From contig JBHLME010000012.1 of assembly GCA_048938445.1 (NCBI GenBank), positions 1 to 52,107 of the forward strand: 52,107 bases of DNA. The letters are read 5' to 3'. Source of the DNA: Promethearchaeota archaeon. Lineage in GTDB: Archaea; Asgardarchaeota; Lokiarchaeia; Sigyniarchaeales; SOKP01. The notes beneath the pieces were generated by a model. The model worked only from the letters and a program-made list of their open reading frames with translations, was not told the DNA's origin and searched no databases. Position numbers and translations under genes: made by a program. This document shows positions 8,734 to 35,212 of this stretch, piece after piece; the stretch's first letter is position 1; the number at the start of each line of letters is the position of its first letter.

Positions 8734-8867
8734 AATATTTTAATTATTTTTTATGATTCGATATTAAATTCTTATGGTATTCTGCCGTTTTACTCATTAA
8801 ATAATTTTAACTATGACGTAGAATTATATTGTTATAAAAAAAAATTTTTTCCCATTAAATTATTTGT

Positions 8868-8968
8868 GACCTGGTAATCTAGCTTGGATAGATTTGAATT
8901 TGCGATTCGAAGTCTTAGGTGCTGGCTTGCGGAGCCAGATATCGGGGGTTCAAATCCCTCCCAGGTCA
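8868..8968 (+). tRNA. tRNA-Arg(GCG) with a 26-nt intron (8892-8917) in the D-arm (about position 22/23)
   Basis: Acceptor GACCTGG/CCAGGTC; anticodon arm CTGGC-TTGCGGA-GCCAG; T arm GGGGG-TTCAAAT-CCCTC. BHB-like motif GGAT-AGA-TTTGAAT...ATTCGAA-GTCT-TAG. Splicing gives a 75-nt cloverleaf. Confidence 0.92.
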
Positions 8969-8973
8969 TTTTT

Positions 8974-28695: not shown

Positions 28696-29547
28696 TTATT
28701 CTAGTTTTCTTATTTCACTTATTAATTTTGATGCTTCTTTACATTTTTTTTTTAGTAAGTCAATATAATCTCGTTCGTCCTCTTCCACGGCTTCCTTTAA
28801 TTTTAATAAATCCGTAGTACTTAATAAAACCTGTAAAATATTTCCTAAGTCATGAGAATATTGATCTTTTAATTTATTTTTGAGAAATGTACTGTTATTA
28901 TATTCAATGTGTATTAAAAAGATAACGATTAAAATAGTCGTTGCTATGGAAGGTATATAATTTAAAATAATAACAAATTCATTGTTTACATCATATAAAC
29001 CATAACTAAAACCTTGAAGAAAAATTATGAAGGAAATCGGAAGATATGTGAAAAAACTTAACAAAACTCCATAATACCAACGTATACTTTTACCCACTTG
29101 CTTTTTAAAAGATTTCAATCTAAATAAGGGACCTATAAAAGCTAAAATGTAAGCTAAATTATGAAATAAAAGAGCTAATTTAATAGCATTTGTGATGCCT
29201 AAGATTAATGAAGTAAGAATTGGGATGAAAATGACTATTATTATAAGAATTATTAATACATTCTTAGAGATTTTCATAAAATAAGCAAATAGTCCAAATA
29301 CTATAAATATTGTGGCAATTGATGCAAAAATAGCATTGAGTAGCAGAAAAATGTCTGATATTAAAACATCATATATACTATCAGAAATGATGGGAAAGAA
29401 TGGTGCAAAAATCCACATTAACCAAGCGATTATAAAAGTTATAAATTTTAAATTTTTTGTACTAAAATAGAAATCAATCGATGCTAGCAATCCAATAGTC
29501 CTTATAACAATAAATATTAATAAACTATAAAATACAAGATAATGCAT
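28696..29547 (-). CDS. 7TM sensor with HisKA-like phosphoacceptor helix, lacking an HATPase domain
   Basis: About 7 TM segments, then YSHDLGNILQ (H-box); the ORF ends ~50 aa later. Confidence 0.7.
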   Translation of the reverse strand: MHYLVFYSLLIFIVIRTIGLLASIDFYFSTKNLKFITFIIAWLMWIFAPFFPIISDSIYDVLISDIFLLLNAIFASIATIFIVFGLFAYFMKISKNVLIILIIIVIFIPILTSLILGITNAIKLALLFHNLAYILAFIGPLFRLKSFKKQVGKSIRWYYGVLLSFFTYLPISFIIFLQGFSYGLYDVNNEFVIILNYIPSIATTILIVIFLIHIEYNNSTFLKNKLKDQYSHDLGNILQVLLSTTDLLKLKEAVEEDERDYIDLLKKKCKEASKLISEIRKLE

Positions 29548-29793
29548 TTTAATACTTTGTACCTATACCCTCATTAATCTTATTTTAAAGATTAATAATC
29601 TAAAAACGTATCTTATTTATAAATTTCTCTCTACCAACTAATTTTTAATTTTATGTTAAATAAGGAGTGGAACTTTATGAAATAGTTATAATTTATCGGG
29701 AGAGATGATTTGAACTAAGGGAACTAAAATATAAAAAAGAAATTTATATTATAGATTTTTATTTGTAATTTATATACATAATTCATTGAATCC

Positions 29794-31518
29794 TCAATTC
29801 CAATATGCCCCTATATACTGAAATTTCAGTACACTACCATCAGAACCTATCGTGAATATATCACCATCTCCATTAACCGCTAAAGGCGCAGGAGCGTCCC
29901 AAATTAGAGGATAAGGATAATATGTAGTGTGATCTATTGGAAGATTTGATGCGATTACATCAATATGTAAATTCTCCATGTTTACTTCTATAAGTCTTTT
30001 CATAGCTGTATCAATGATGAGTAAATTCCCATTATAATCCCAAGCGAGACCTTTAGGTTTTCCCGTGTAACCATTGAGAAATATTTCTTTAACTCCACTT
30101 GCTATATTAATCTTAGTAATCCGTCCAGCAAGTGATTCAGCTACATAAAGATAACCATCCTTGAGGATTATGTCTATTGGTCCAGATAAATCTCCAGCGA
30201 CTACTCTTCTATCTCCTGATGTTAAGTTAATTTCTATGACTTGTCCTTCACCATATTCTGCAACATATAACATTAGATTATCGTCATCTAGTTCCATACC
30301 CGCGGGGCTTGAAACAGGGTAAGCAACAGGAGTCCATTCCTCAGCAATATTAGGATTTACGTTAACTACAATACCATCTATAAAATCAGCAGTAAAGAGT
30401 GATTCTCCTATCCCATTTGTCATGGTTATAGGCAAGGGATAACCAGTCGATGATAACCAAGCATTAGCCCATGTTTTATATAGATTACCCTCTTCATCCA
30501 TCTTCCTTATCATTATAGAATCGCATAAATAAAGCTGATCTTCTTTTACTACAATGCTGGCTACTGAATTTATCCCCATGGGGAATAACATACTATAATC
30601 ACCACTATCGGGATCTACCTTCCAAATCGTGCAGTCATGATAACTGCTAATATAGAGATTACCATCTGGTCCAAATGCTAGATTGTCTAATCCCGGAAGC
30701 AGATTAGCTATTGTTTCTATCTCCAAACCATCGGGACTAATTTTTTTAACCGCACCAGTAGCTATTTCAATTGTATAGATATATCCATCTGGACCAATCT
30801 TCAATGCTACAGGGGTGATTAGACCTTCAGTTACAAGATATGTAGTATCACCAGTATCCATATCCACCTCAACTATCGACCATGTTCCAAGATCAGGAAT
30901 GACGAGTTTATTATTCCGAATATCAAATCCTTCAGGTACTGCTAAGGAATCAGTTACTAATCGTGGTGGGGTCCCACCTTCTGGATCTAATTCCCATACA
31001 CGGTTACCCCAAAAGCATTCAGTCATAAATAAGCGTCCAGATGCTAAATCATAACTGATACCATTTGGACCACTCAAACCACGAACTATGACTTCCTTCA
31101 TTCCATCTGAGTCAATTTTATATACTTCTCCGGTAATTGCACTAGTTGCATAAAAATTTTCCTTATCATCAACAGTAATATCATCGGGGCAAATTACTCC
31201 ATAATAAGGTTCTACAAATGTTTTTACTCGAGGGGGTCCAATCGCGCTTAAGGTAATTCTAGAAATAGTATTTGCACTTGATTGACATACATAAAGAGCA
31301 CCATCCATACCAAAAATGAGACCATTGCAACCCCTTAATGGAGTAGATTCGATTAAAGTTACTTTTCTGTAGCCTCTATCAACAAAAATTCTCTCTTTAC
31401 ATGATGAGTTAATTGACCACGACACGGCATTAACCGAAATCAACACTGAAGTAGATAAGAAAACTGTCATAATAATAACCAATTTCATTTTTTTTTTCAA
31501 ATTTGATAACACCTTCAA
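29794..31518 (-). CDS. Secreted beta-propeller protein (SMP-30/gluconolactonase/NHL-like repeats)
   Basis: Repeated PxGI/L...GPDGxLY blades; signal peptide from likely ATG 31488. Confidence 0.82.
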   Translation of the reverse strand: MKVLSNLKKKMKLVIIMTVFLSTSVLISVNAVSWSINSSCKERIFVDRGYRKVTLIESTPLRGCNGLIFGMDGALYVCQSSANTISRITLSAIGPPRVKTFVEPYYGVICPDDITVDDKENFYATSAITGEVYKIDSDGMKEVIVRGLSGPNGISYDLASGRLFMTECFWGNRVWELDPEGGTPPRLVTDSLAVPEGFDIRNNKLVIPDLGTWSIVEVDMDTGDTTYLVTEGLITPVALKIGPDGYIYTIEIATGAVKKISPDGLEIETIANLLPGLDNLAFGPDGNLYISSYHDCTIWKVDPDSGDYSMLFPMGINSVASIVVKEDQLYLCDSIMIRKMDEEGNLYKTWANAWLSSTGYPLPITMTNGIGESLFTADFIDGIVVNVNPNIAEEWTPVAYPVSSPAGMELDDDNLMLYVAEYGEGQVIEINLTSGDRRVVAGDLSGPIDIILKDGYLYVAESLAGRITKINIASGVKEIFLNGYTGKPKGLAWDYNGNLLIIDTAMKRLIEVNMENLHIDVIASNLPIDHTTYYPYPLIWDAPAPLAVNGDGDIFTIGSDGSVLKFQYIGAYWN

Positions 31519-31782
31519 CTAATTGTTTAAAATTAGCAAGAAAAAATTAAGGATTTTTTATATAAATAGCTTTACTTTTATGTCAAAAAACTATTTTCCA
31601 ATAGAATTCTTGACTTTAAAAAAAAATTAGATTGTTTTATTTATAACTATTAAGTAAATAAAAAATCTAAATAGTAATGGAGTTTTTCCTCTTCCTGAAA
31701 TTATCCCTGAAATTCCTTTTCAAGTTTTTTTTATAATTTCTATACTATTCAAATTAAAATTCCATAAAATATATTTATTTAG

Positions 31783-31886
31783 TGGGAGAGGGGGGAATTG
31801 AACCCCCGACCACTTGGCCCCCAGCCAATTCGATAAATTTGGCTAAATGACAAATTATGTATCATACCAAGCTAGACCACCCTCCC
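31783..31886 (-). tRNA. tRNA-Pro(GGG) with a 30-nt intron (31829-31858) at about position 27/28
   Basis: Acceptor GGGAGGG/CTCTCCC; spliced anticodon arm CTTGG-CTGGGGG-CCAAG; T arm GGGGG-TTCAATT-CCCCC. Relaxed BHB TGAT-ACA...ATCG-AAT; 74 nt after splicing. Confidence 0.9.
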
Positions 31887-32080: not shown

Positions 32081-34063
32081 ATGACAGAAATGAATAATTT
32101 AAATAGTGATGATTTACAAGTTTTAAAAGATATTGGTGCTTTATCTCGATTCAAAGTCCCTGTTCCTGAAAAAAAAGCAACAACCAATAAGGGATTTTGT
32201 TATACAGCGGAAAATAATAGGGTTGTGGAACTTACTTTAATTTCAAGCGGATTAAATATTCTTCCTGAATCTATTGGGAATCTTAATTCACTCAAAACCC
32301 TAATAATAAAAATTAATGAGCTAAATGAACTTCCAGAATCTATTGGTAAACTCAACTCGCTAGAGACTTTAGATCTTAGTGGAAACATGTTAAAAACTTT
32401 ACCTAACTCTATTGGGGATCTCAACTCCTTGAAAACTTTAATCTTAGCCAATAATCGAGGATTACAAATACCAGAAGTAATTGGAAATATTTCAGCGCTT
32501 AAAACCTTGGATATTAGTTCCTTGAATTTAACATCAGTACCTGAGGCAATTGGAAACCTTTCTTCACTTGAATCTTTGGATCTAGCAGGAAACAATACTT
32601 TAGTTGAATTACCAAACTCAATTGGGCAATTAAAATCATTAAAATTTATTAATTTAAATAGCAACGCCAAACTCAAGTCTCTCCCAGAATCAATTGGAAC
32701 GCTCAGTTCACTTGAAATATTGAATTGCTCTGGAAACTTTTTATTTGAATCTCTTCCAGAATCAATCGGAAATTTAAGCTCTCTTAGAGAATTAGATTTA
32801 GAAAGAAATAAAAAATTAATTCTATTGCCAAATTCAATTGGAAATCTTTCTTTACTCCGGAAAATAAACCTAAATGGAGTTAGCCTAACAAACCTACCCG
32901 AATCAATAGGTAATCTTGAATCACTTGAACAATTATATTTATCTCGAAATCAACTGAAATTTCTTCCAAACTCGATTGGGCAATTAAAACTCCTTCAAAT
33001 TTTGGACTTATCTGATAATCAACTTGAATCCATTCCTAATTCTATTGGTAATTTATCAATGCTACGGGAATTATTATTAGCTGGTAACAATTTAAAAAAA
33101 ATGCCTGAAAGCATGTCAAATCTTACAAATCTCGAATTACTAACATTAGGACAAAATCAATTCGAACAGATACCAGATTGGATTGGTGACCTTGGTTCAC
33201 TTAAAAAATTAAGTTTTTTAAAAAATAACCTAACATTACTTCCTCGATCTATAGGCAGATTGATTGACTTGGATTATCTAGATTTAAGAATGAATCAGTT
33301 TATGGAGCTACCTGGACCACTATGGCCTTTAAAAAATTTAAAAGAATTGAAACTTGAAAACAATCCGTGGACAGAAGAATCCAAATATATAATTGACAAA
33401 CAAGATCTTCCTTTATTGCTCAATAATTGTAGAAAAAATGCCACGATAAATGTCTTTTTAAGCCATGCGGTTGCGGATTTTGATTATTTTAAAATTGATA
33501 AATTTTCTAATTACTTAGAAAAACAAAATGAGATATATACAGCATTTTATTGTGAAGAAGATTTAACAGGTAATATTGATGCATTTATGAATGAAAAAGT
33601 TCCCGAGTGCCAAATTTTAATTTTCTTTGCATCTCAAAAATCAGTTTTTAATTCTGTTGATTGTGCTCATGAACTTGACTTAGCTCGCCAATATGAAATA
33701 CAAATTGTTCCGATAAAAGGTGCTGATATTACATGGGAGGATATGAATAAAATAAATTTAAGTCGAGAATTAGGTCACGAATTTAGAATTGATGATTTTG
33801 ACGCATTCATTGCAGAAATTTTTGACTATATTAAAAAATTGAAAGAAAACGTTAATTTATTTGATACCAAGGAAGCAAAAATCGATAAGGAAAAGTTAAA
33901 CTTAAAAAATACAATCAACCACTTGATAAATTCTAAAGAATTTAGAGCGCAAATTTTTTCATCAGTAGATGAATTGAGAGGACTTTTTGAAGATTTAAGT
34001 AATAATAAAATAACTACGTTGGAGTACTTCCTTAAAAGCGCCCAAATTCTTTCTAAAAAATAA
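32081..34063 (+). CDS. Leucine-rich repeat protein with C-terminal TIR-like domain
   Basis: About 16 LRRs of consensus LPESIGNLxxLxxLxLxxNxL; then INVFLSHA...ILIFFASQKSVFNSVDCAHELDLA...IVPI (TIR betaA, betaC, alphaC Glu, betaD). Confidence 0.88.
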   Translation: MTEMNNLNSDDLQVLKDIGALSRFKVPVPEKKATTNKGFCYTAENNRVVELTLISSGLNILPESIGNLNSLKTLIIKINELNELPESIGKLNSLETLDLSGNMLKTLPNSIGDLNSLKTLILANNRGLQIPEVIGNISALKTLDISSLNLTSVPEAIGNLSSLESLDLAGNNTLVELPNSIGQLKSLKFINLNSNAKLKSLPESIGTLSSLEILNCSGNFLFESLPESIGNLSSLRELDLERNKKLILLPNSIGNLSLLRKINLNGVSLTNLPESIGNLESLEQLYLSRNQLKFLPNSIGQLKLLQILDLSDNQLESIPNSIGNLSMLRELLLAGNNLKKMPESMSNLTNLELLTLGQNQFEQIPDWIGDLGSLKKLSFLKNNLTLLPRSIGRLIDLDYLDLRMNQFMELPGPLWPLKNLKELKLENNPWTEESKYIIDKQDLPLLLNNCRKNATINVFLSHAVADFDYFKIDKFSNYLEKQNEIYTAFYCEEDLTGNIDAFMNEKVPECQILIFFASQKSVFNSVDCAHELDLARQYEIQIVPIKGADITWEDMNKINLSRELGHEFRIDDFDAFIAEIFDYIKKLKENVNLFDTKEAKIDKEKLNLKNTINHLINSKEFRAQIFSSVDELRGLFEDLSNNKITTLEYFLKSAQILSKK

Positions 34064-34283: not shown

Positions 34284-34601
34284 ATGAAACAAGGAAAAAA
34301 AATCTTAATTGGAATTTGTTTGGTTTCAGCTATAATTTCTTTAGGGACTTTAAGTACTGTAGCAGCAGTTAATCCATTTCTATTAGAAATGAGCGGAGAT
34401 ATGAACCAAGATCAGGACCAAGACCGAATCCAAGAATGTGATCAAGATTGCGATCAAGAATGTTGCCAAGATTGTGATCAGGATCAGAACCAAGATCGAG
34501 ATCAAGACCAAGATCAAGACCAGGATCAAGACCAGGATCAAGACCAGGATCAAGACCAGGATCAAGATCAGGATCAAGATCAAGATTGTAATCCTGTATA
34601 A
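34284..34601 (+). CDS. Secreted Gln-Asp repeat protein
   Basis: SD-like GAAGGAAGGA; signal peptide MKQGKKILIGICLVSAIISLG; CD/QD repeats. Confidence 0.75.
   Translation: MKQGKKILIGICLVSAIISLGTLSTVAAVNPFLLEMSGDMNQDQDQDRIQECDQDCDQECCQDCDQDQNQDRDQDQDQDQDQDQDQDQDQDQDQDQDQDQDCNPV
34407..34586 (+). repeat. Hexanucleotide (CARGAY)n coding tandem repeat
   Basis: 14 uninterrupted QD units at 34503-34586, including (CAAGACCAGGAT)x4, preceded by degenerate units. Confidence 0.95.
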
Positions 34602-34708: not shown

Positions 34709-35212
34709 TTAACTAACATTCCACATCATTGCGCATTCCCCAACTCCACCTTTTTGAACACCCTCGTATCTTAGATTCCTGAATCCAAACTTACTTTTTA
34801 CCTTTGATAAAATTCCCATCATAACTTGCGGAAACATGCAAGATGGATTTCCATGATCATGATACCTAAAATAAGTATTAGCAAAGCACATTTTGCAGCT
34901 ATCTTGTCGAGCTATAAGTTTTAGAACTTGGCCATTATCATCCTTAATTGTTTCTACTTTAGCATTATCTGTTATTGCCCATTCTTGTTCTAAGAATTGT
35001 TCCAACCTTGCCATTAAATCATCAATCGTTTCAATACCTTCATCATTGAATTCCCTTCCGATTGTTCTACCGATTTTTGTAAGGATTTCTCCTTTTTTTT
35101 CAGGGGGAAGTGATTTTTGAACAGCATACCATAGTTTAAAAAATGTACTATAAGGAACTGTTTCAAACTGTGTTGGTAGATTTTTAACTTCTTTTTCTGT
35201 TAATATTCCCAT
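34709..35212 (-). CDS. V4R/4VR-like domain protein
   Basis: KIGRTIGREF helix, CKMC...SCMFP..MMGIL...ECAM Cys pattern. Confidence 0.55.
   Translation of the reverse strand: MGILTEKEVKNLPTQFETVPYSTFFKLWYAVQKSLPPEKKGEILTKIGRTIGREFNDEGIETIDDLMARLEQFLEQEWAITDNAKVETIKDDNGQVLKLIARQDSCKMCFANTYFRYHDHGNPSCMFPQVMMGILSKVKSKFGFRNLRYEGVQKGGVGECAMMWNVS

Follow-up and report, generated by a model that had tools for sequence, protein, structure and literature searches.

A leucine-rich repeat protein joined directly to a TIR domain in an Asgard archaeon: domain architecture, candidate active site and a variable genomic slot

Bacteria, plants and animals have few immune modules in common, one of them the TIR domain. 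The closest relatives of eukaryotes known so far are the Asgard archaea. To our knowledge, no adaptor TIR system has been described in archaea. Here we analyse a gene from a stretch of 52,107 nucleotides of a Promethearchaeota archaeon (contig JBHLME010000012.1; the whole stretch is called the window below). The gene, at positions 32081-34063 of the + strand, encodes leucine-rich repeats (LRRs) joined directly to a TIR domain. The described systems closest to it are the prokaryotic NAD+-cleaving enzymes (NADases) with TIR_2 domains (SPARTA, AbTir, TcpO), SARM1, plant TIR-NLRs and TIR-only proteins, animal Toll-like receptors, and ThsB of Thoeris. On balance we lean slightly towards reading the protein as a pre-dimerised, ligand-gated sensor that cleaves NAD+.

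The catalytic site of TIR domains is formed by their self-association, and no NADase activity was found for TLR2 or for the adaptor TIRs examined, according to PMC9153377. In planta, the archaeal TIR protein TcpO reduces NAD+, and the cell death that it causes depends on the conserved glutamate (PMC10022894).

The gene is an ATG-started open reading frame (ORF) of 660 codons plus a stop, without internal stops. Three orthologs of 660, 661 and 663 amino acids, from bins of other Asgard genomes, align with it end to end and are 57-71% identical, and thus its start and stop are sound. In the product, 17 LRRs are followed by a short linker with one helix, then by a TIR domain and a tail of three helices. 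The features are as follows.

32081-34063, + strand: the whole gene of the LRR-TIR-tail protein (ORF list, translation, orthologs)
32081-32221, + strand: N-terminal 47 residues ahead of the repeats, polar, without a signal peptide (sequence, hydropathy)
32222-33370, + strand: LRR solenoid, residues 48-430; the 17th repeat and the cap continue to about residue 443 (Pfam, repeat lay-out)
33371-33442, + strand: linker, residues 431-454, with one helix at 440-453 (DSSP of the AF2 model)
33443-33853, + strand: TIR domain, residues 455-591, from betaA to alphaE (Pfam TIR_2, Foldseek, VIA-align)
33662-33673, + strand: Cys528-Ala-His-Glu531, the catalytic-type glutamate with a near-invariant cysteine three residues ahead of it
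33854-34060, + strand: C-terminal tail, residues 592-660, three helices (DSSP), a predicted homodimerisation module

An earlier note on this DNA, made from the sequence alone, had proposed LRRs followed by a TIR domain and a helical tail, and this order is borne out by Pfam, the AF2 model and the structure matches. The same note had seen no signal peptide, transmembrane (TM) segment or NTPase domain. Indeed, no TM segment or signal peptide was found by hydropathy: the maximal Kyte-Doolittle mean over 19 residues is 1.11, and the N-terminus is polar. No NTPase family matches the protein in Pfam (at E<=1) or NCBIfam, and the NCBIfam scan yielded LRR-driven matches only, far under their cut-offs. 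In the AF2 model, as assigned by DSSP, the LRRs and the TIR domain are separated by a soluble linker of 24 residues. This linker is the only region between residues 48 and 591 that lies outside the LRRs and the TIR domain, and so there is no room for a STAND NTPase. The N-terminal 47 residues have low pLDDT in the single-sequence AF2 model. Judged by its sequence, the protein looks cytosolic.

The isolated C-terminus matches the Pfam family TIR_2 (PF13676) over profile positions 1-109 of 122, with E 3.4e-6 and 28.0 bits, the gathering cut-off being 28. The whole-protein Pfam scan does not list a TIR family at E<=1, and PF01582 does not match the isolated C-terminus, the prokaryote-type TIR_2 being the only TIR family found there. 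Of 95 family representatives, 63 match TIR_2, with a best E of 5.4e-31. Judged by its sequence, the C-terminal domain is a divergent TIR.

The fold was considered on an AF2 model of residues 435-660 (226 amino acids) built on 61 sequences, with mean pLDDT 87.9 and pTM 0.75. The top Foldseek matches of this model in the PDB are SARM1, MyD88, RPS4, Roq1, L7, AbTir and the SPARTA TIRs, with E from 1e-4 to 1e-3, probability 1.00 and TM-score by target 0.58-0.74. The best VIA-align match is the SPARTA TIR-APAZ chain 8ifl_A (Z 15.1, rmsd 2.4 A over 127 residues); RPV1 (Z 14.6), RUN1 (14.4), SARM1 and Hydra TRR-2 (13.7 each) and AbTir (12.9) are among the others. The matches cover model residues 20-157, that is, protein residues 454-591. 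Rows within one Z unit are tied, and this ranking cannot tell bacterial, plant and animal TIRs apart. In ESM Atlas, the neighbours by features are bacterial TIR_2 and ThsB_TIR clusters (0.89-0.91), and the first neighbour by structure is a Promethearchaeota TIR_2 cluster. In the model, the C-terminal domain has the flavodoxin-like five-strand TIR fold. Both the TIR-like domain proposed in the earlier note and the checks that it named, Pfam TIR_2 and Foldseek, stand: the family is matched at its threshold, and the structure matches have the TIR fold. The note had also considered that the domain might not have this fold; the fold comparison gave TIR, with Z 15.1-12.6.

The domain might instead be a different Rossmann-like nucleoside or nucleotide enzyme, similar to DNPH1 or to nucleoside 2-deoxyribosyltransferases and not a TIR proper. 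DNPH1 chains match the model at Z 12.6 and with Foldseek E 1.3e-3, not far under the TIR rows. However, the 48 VIA-align rows that rank above DNPH1 are all TIR domains, Pfam assigns both this protein and the 63 representatives mentioned above to TIR_2, and the ESM Atlas neighbours are TIR_2 clusters. We regard this alternative as very improbable.

Among the described systems, the TIR domain matches SPARTA TIR-APAZ best (Z 15.1-14.1); AbTir (12.9) scores lower, and all belong to the same Pfam family. The betaA motif FxSHA is common to the SPARTA chain 8qlo_A and the TIR considered here, and both have the catalytic-type glutamate. On the other hand, SPARTA has an APAZ domain and an Argonaute neighbour, whereas no APAZ or Argonaute signal was found in the LRR-TIR protein or its neighbours, and the sensor here would be the covalently fused array of 17 LRRs.

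SARM1 similarly combines a repeat domain, a self-association module and a TIR domain in one soluble chain (Z 13.7, rmsd 2.9 A over 125 amino acids). However, it has ARM repeats and a tandem SAM octamer, whereas here there are LRRs and, after the TIR domain, a three-helix tail with a predicted dimer.

Plant TIR-NLRs and TIR-only proteins (RUN1, RPV1, RPS4, L6, RPP1) share the TIR fold (Z 14.6-13.2), and the Cys-x-x-Glu pattern near alphaC is similar. In plant TIR-NLRs both LRRs and TIR are present, but their order is TIR-NB-ARC-LRR, whereas here the LRRs precede the TIR domain and the NB-ARC NTPase is lacking. The extended alphaD region of plant TIRs is also absent, as is a match to PF01582. 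Animal Toll-like receptors do have the LRR-then-TIR order. They differ in that the protein considered here has neither a signal peptide nor a TM helix, so that both domains would be cytosolic, and its LRRs are of the intracellular or bacterial type with 23-24 residues. The domain that resembles ThsB of Thoeris is of the TIR_2 type, and clusters bearing ThsB_TIR are at 0.89-0.91 in ESM Atlas; however, ThsB has no LRRs, there is no ThsA-type gene (SIR2/SLOG or Macro) beside the LRR-TIR gene, and PADLOC gives no Thoeris match.

Thus the likeness to Toll-like and NLR receptors put forward in the earlier note holds for the domain content, and does not extend to a signal peptide, an ectodomain, a TM segment or a STAND NTPase. 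Its further suggestion, relevance to the origin of eukaryotic innate immunity, finds no specific tie here: Pfam (TIR_2 only), ESM Atlas and the structural scores show no special link of this TIR to eukaryotic TIRs, and no TIR phylogeny with eukaryotic sequences was made.

The glutamate that the earlier note had placed in a CAHEL motif is indeed there: the codon at 33671-33673 is GAA and encodes Glu531. In the AF2 model it sits on helix alphaC after the third strand betaC (construct helix 92-103 after strand 78-83), which we take to be the position where enzymatic TIRs carry the catalytic glutamate. Glu531 is invariant in 61/61 and 38/38 aligned relatives and is present in 206 of the 211 TIR domains of 200 stored proteins. 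Of the five others, four have K, I, M or A instead and one has a gap; two of the five come second in proteins with two TIRs. Other conserved positions in the related TIR domains are Ser461 (193/211), His462 (172/211), Cys491 (167/211), Glu492 (183/211), Ser521 (196/211), Ser525 (202/211), Cys528 (199/211) and Trp552 (193/211). S461, E492, S521, S525, C528 and W552, each kept in at least 183 of the 211 domains, fall in the betaA, BB-loop and alphaC segments. In known TIRs these segments line the pocket. An enzyme would typically show such conservation more than a bare scaffold would. In BLASTP, the TIR domain aligns with a WD40-TIR protein from the same genome (2e-14), Glu on Glu. The latter matches TIR_2 at 53.6 bits and itself has a weak alignment to the SPARTA chain 8qlo_A (E 0.046), in which the two glutamates also coincide.

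These residues bear on a second possibility, that the TIR is a scaffold or adaptor which does not cleave NAD+. It would then be a homotypic module, like those of animal Toll-like receptors and MyD88, that links the protein to its own TIR paralogs, and the signalling need not be immune. Partners for TIR-TIR contacts are available: the genome has seven matches to the C-terminus, the LRR-TIR gene included, so that there are six further copies, plus another TIR_2 protein. MyD88 (Foldseek rank 2) and Hydra TRR-2 (Z 13.7) score nearly as well as the enzymatic TIRs, the same TIR carries many signalling-type heads (LRR, WD40, Roc) in Asgard genomes, and this locus has no defence-island context. However, a pure scaffold needs neither the glutamate, kept in the 206 domains, nor the near-invariant residues of the neighbouring pocket. 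Two of the four substituted copies are, as said, the second TIR of two-TIR proteins, which suggests that the glutamate normally matters. Since not all TIRs have the catalytic glutamate (PMC9153377), its retention across a diverse family is informative. We therefore hold the scaffold to be possible but unlikely.

Another alternative concerns the substrate. The TIR could remove NAD caps from RNA, or act as a 2',3'-cNMP synthetase or nuclease as in plant TIRs, with the LRRs as a regulator. Cys528 lies three residues before Glu531, presumably at the same spacing as a cysteine in the plant L7 TIR. The cysteine of L7 that neighbours the catalytic glutamate matters mainly for the 2',3'-cNMP synthetase activity (PMC9153377), and Cys528 is retained in the great majority of the family (the 199 domains counted above). 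Bacterial TIR proteins and one archaeal TIR protein decap NAD-RNA, as stated in PMC10937652. On the other hand, the extended plant-type alphaD region is missing, the helix at its place in the AF2 model comprising only residues 552-556, and Pfam scans of the whole protein and of the isolated C-terminus gave no nucleic-acid-binding domain. This alternative seems improbable to us.

After alphaE (residues 573-590), the AF2 model has helices at 596-616, 619-640 and 646-658 by DSSP, with pLDDT 81-95; this is the helical tail of the earlier note. Self-association was predicted with two copies of the 226-residue C-terminal construct in three runs, with three controls. The ipSAE of the two-copy prediction is 0.59 (0.54, 0.63 and 0.59 in the runs), the best of the three controls being 0.00. 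Of 30 proteins solved as same-chain pairs, 20 reach the mark, as against 1 of 23 proteins with single-chain structures; these counts are approximate, since our own alignment was used. The runs share at least 91% of contacts, and the partner pLDDT is at least 81. All confident contacts are symmetric and fall in construct residues 163-224, that is, protein residues 597-658. The tail is thus predicted to form a symmetric homodimer, which the model supports and does not prove.

This predicted helical pairing module beside the TIR recalls the coiled coil of AbTir and TcpO. It differs from the modules of the prokaryotic TIR_2 NADases SPARTA, AbTir and TcpO in lying C-terminal to the TIR domain, and HMMER searches with the present sequence miss the solved TIRs. 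The tail has no Pfam family, no second copy in the same genome at E<=0.1 and no usable ESM Atlas match by features; the ESM Atlas rows by structure are only generic, short and helical.

The repeats dominate the Pfam scan of the whole protein, with LRR_14 at 1.8e-60, LRR_8 at 1e-35, further LRR families and nothing else above threshold. A lay-out by hand gives 17 of them, each 23-24 residues long, which span residues 48 to about 443 and have the consensus LxxLxLxxNxLxxLPxSIGxL; the earlier note had the array right and had counted about 16. The full-length single-sequence AF2 model shows a regular strand-helix solenoid (pLDDT 74-95) roughly over residues 41-400. The same model has pLDDT below 50 at residues 427-627 and is uninformative on how the LRRs and the TIR pack.

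Conservation differs between the parts of the protein. Among four orthologs, the identity to the window protein is 53-69% in the LRRs, 74-80% in the TIR domain and 51-71% in the tail. The x positions of LxxLxLxxN on the concave face are invariant in 11 of 85 columns, as against 133 of 298 at the other LRR positions (Fisher p 2.7e-8); the corresponding counts are 74 of 121 in the TIR domain and 23 of 85 in the tail. For dN/dS, a set of four sequences is too small, and their divergence too great. The variable concave face and the conserved TIR domain would fit a diversifying binding face on a conserved output.

Taken together, these data are consistent with the following scheme, which spells out the ligand-gated NADase reading that we slightly favour. 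The protein would be a cytosolic sensor and effector in a single chain, encoded by a stand-alone gene. The 17-repeat LRR array with its fast-changing concave face would bind the ligand, and the TIR domain would provide the output, most likely as an enzyme that cleaves NAD+ by means of Glu531. The tail with its three helices would keep two chains as a constitutive dimer, in whose resting state the two TIRs are tethered and a composite active site is not formed. Binding of a ligand, probably a foreign or stress-related protein, to the LRRs would make the TIRs pack together or with the TIRs of neighbouring dimers. NAD+ would then be depleted or turned into signal molecules of the ADP-ribose (ADPR) type, and growth would stop. 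A role in conflict or defence would fit the family, which is paralog-rich and patchily distributed in Asgard archaea. An antiviral role in particular is less likely than the enzymatic sensor as a whole.

Several points weigh against this reading. The sequence support for the TIR domain is weak, as TIR_2 is matched exactly at the cut-off and in the isolated C-terminus only. A phmmer search of the C-terminus against PDB sequences gave 0 matches, and a profile of 38 family sequences gave only two matches in the PDB, both non-TIR (E 0.5 and 1.3). The equivalence of Glu531 to the glutamate of a solved TIR rests on the two-step alignment described above, whose second step is the one with E 0.046. 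A conserved glutamate is insufficient for activity, and NAD+ cleavage is what we infer here. The predicted dimer contacts lie in the tail alone, and the two-copy prediction has no interface between the TIR domains. Since solvent-exposed positions are variable in LRR proteins of every kind, their variability here is no proof of an arms race. As to the genomic context, the neighbours are housekeeping or unrelated genes: an enoyl-CoA hydratase (ECH), a HisKA membrane protein, an NHL propeller, SRP19, HypA, S8e and the proteasome beta subunit. PADLOC gave only chance-level matches for the whole protein and its C-terminus (CARF_TM, E 0.019; Cas9, E 0.26). No partner gene is universal across 85 loci, the ortholog groups having synteny of their own. 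Finally, the gene is syntenic in three congeneric genomes and thus not obviously mobile.

The gene belongs to a large, patchy family, nearly all of which is labelled Asgard. The nearest relatives of the protein come under Promethearchaeota and other Asgard labels. A search with the C-terminus found 60 proteins; precomputed Pfam assigns PF13676 to 21 of them, and two have the source name 'TIR domain-containing protein'. A profile search among 1.84 billion representatives yielded 1075 clusters at E<=1e-3, 578 at E<=1e-10 and 205 at E<=1e-30. The guess that many unstudied relatives exist in Asgard genomes was therefore well founded. Among 78 loci from species-representative genomes, 61 are Asgard-named, 14 are labelled 'uncultured archaeon' and 3 (L022, L052, L077) have bacterial labels. 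L052 and L077 have gene order in common with Asgard loci, and thus their labels are probably binning errors. Family matches occur in 15 of 31 related genomes, with 0-14 matches in each, and several related genomes that are 96-100% complete have none.

The heads joined to this TIR are diverse. LRRs are present in 64 of 95 representatives; WD40, LVIVD and TSP3 repeats are rarer, and combinations of Roc/Ras with LRRs and of GNAT with LRRs also occur. A survey of Asgard defence systems lists TIR only in 'Rst2TM TIR-NLR' and '2TM 1TM TIR' systems (PMC11291487, accessible part), and full-text literature searches found no paper treating the Asgard LRR-TIR family. The predicted homodimer of the tail, the hypervariable concave LRR positions and the variable slot described below are new here. 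In this large Asgard family, LRR sensors are joined directly to a TIR with a conserved catalytic-type glutamate and a predicted pairing module.

Some paralogs have recurrent neighbours. At six loci (L003, L005, L009, L010, L011, L013) a TIR paralog is found beside CHAT protease, radical-SAM and PNP_UDP_1 genes. At seven loci (L006, L007, L012, L017, L047, L054, L077) the neighbours are a WD40 gene and an isochorismatase-like gene (nicotinamidase family), and at five (L059, L060, L062, L064, L065; e.g. L064:1848-3572) the neighbour is a 575-residue NUDIX protein. The NUDIX and isochorismatase-like neighbours suggest handling of ADP-ribose or nicotinamide. On the other hand, these groupings may simply reflect shared ancestry.

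A more specific proposal draws on these neighbours. The Asgard LRR-TIRs could be a distinct class of cytosolic pattern receptors without a STAND NTPase. They would be pre-paired by the helical module at the C-terminus, would read a viral or other foreign protein by the hypervariable LRR face, and would respond with an NAD-derived signal or NAD+ depletion. Reading or buffering of this output would, at paralogous loci, fall to NUDIX, nicotinamidase-like, PNP or CHAT-protease genes that are unlinked or loosely linked. We put this forward tentatively and think it distinctly unlikely in its full form. If it were true, the closest archaeal relatives of eukaryotes would already have combined LRR sensing and TIR output in one chain, with no STAND switch. 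The simpler reading, if the proteins are active NADases triggered through the LRRs, would offer a simple system for ligand switching of a TIR without an NTPase, and an archaeal data point on where eukaryotic LRR/TIR immunity came from.

In the six loci with the CHAT (caspase-like) protease, its gene encodes 1147 residues and a 449-residue LRR-TIR paralog always lies 3' of it on the same strand (e.g. L013:3837-7277); the radical-SAM gene and the PNP_UDP_1 phosphorylase gene come after the paralog. This arrangement could be a functional unit or could reflect shared ancestry. Family members with in-frame stops inside the TIR region were observed at L020:6279-6911, L021:1366-1926 and G018:C4:23136-23648; they may be pseudogenes or assembly errors.

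In the window, the LRR-TIR gene occupies a variable slot beside a tRNA gene, whose row is as follows.

31782-31886, - strand: tRNA-Pro(GGG) with a non-canonical intron of about 30 nt after the D arm, the left border of the slot (Rfam, ARAGORN, alignment)

This tRNA gene lies 194 bp upstream of the LRR-TIR gene in divergent orientation. The Rfam scan by E-value gave a tRNA-clan match at 31780-31886 on the - strand (29.9 bits, E 2.2e-9), intron-aware ARAGORN gave a tRNA at c[31782,31886] mislabelled as Trp, and alignment with six orthologous tRNA genes fixed the Pro(GGG) identity and the position of the intron. The default ARAGORN and the Rfam gathering scan find no tRNA near the LRR-TIR gene. 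The earlier note had indeed placed the gene beside a tRNA.

The right border of the slot is the conserved block SRP19-HypA-S8e-proteasome beta, genes that place the window in an archaeon. At loci L001 and L002 tRNA-Pro(GGG) lies 213-228 bp upstream of the LRR-TIR ortholog, and at L015 about 900 bp upstream; L002 and L015 have the same block downstream. In genomes G009 and G012 the tRNA abuts SRP19, with gaps of 174 and 127 bp; these genomes are 97% and 100% complete and have no match to the LRR-TIR C-terminus at E<=1e-5. In G007 the tRNA and SRP19 are separated by an enoyl-CoA hydratase gene, and in the congener G001 (74% complete) two unrelated genes are found upstream of SRP19. At L007 and L017 a tRNA array lies in the slot together with genes for a longer LRR-TIR protein, a WD40 protein, an isochorismatase-like protein and a further LRR protein. 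No GC anomaly or integrase was observed at the LRR-TIR locus, and no att-like duplications of the tRNA were found in the slot, which has only AT-rich and LRR-internal repeats. The region had been called accessory-looking: the slot does vary between genomes, while a GC anomaly and an att-like repeat are not seen. The LRR-TIR gene has no operon partner at this locus. A defence island was considered for the locus and rejected, the neighbours being housekeeping or unrelated.

The orthologous tRNA-Pro(GGG) genes (L001:1386-1489, L002:2919-3022, L015:5636-5770, L088:7735-7840, L089:5587-5662, L090:3379-3480) carry introns at differing positions across Asgard genomes. The intron follows the D arm in the window and in L015, where a second one is found in the anticodon loop. 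It is at the junction of the variable loop and the T arm in L001 and L002, in the anticodon loop in L088 and in the D loop in L090, and L089 has none. Intron-aware ARAGORN mislabels several of these orthologs. The sole tRNA from the Rfam gathering scan of the window is tRNA-Ala(TGC), with an intron, at 8867-8969 on the + strand.

On the other side of tRNA-Pro(GGG), between the hydratase gene and the tRNA, positions 28696-31518 of the - strand encode two proteins: a membrane protein whose C-terminus is HisKA-like, and a secreted NHL/SGL beta-propeller of 574 residues. Both genes are absent at L001, where the enoyl-CoA hydratase gene abuts the tRNA, and thus this side of the tRNA is variable too.

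Two small ORFs lie downstream of the LRR-TIR gene. A putative gene at 34284-34601 on the + strand encodes 105 residues; after a hydrophobic N-terminus come Cys/Asp/Gln and (DQ)n repeats, to which a 12-nt tandem repeat at 34386-34597 corresponds in the DNA, and the product has no Pfam match. The ORF at 34709-35212 on the - strand encodes a Cys-rich product of 167 residues, likewise without a Pfam match, and an 83% identical counterpart is encoded next to SRP19 in a congeneric genome (L086).

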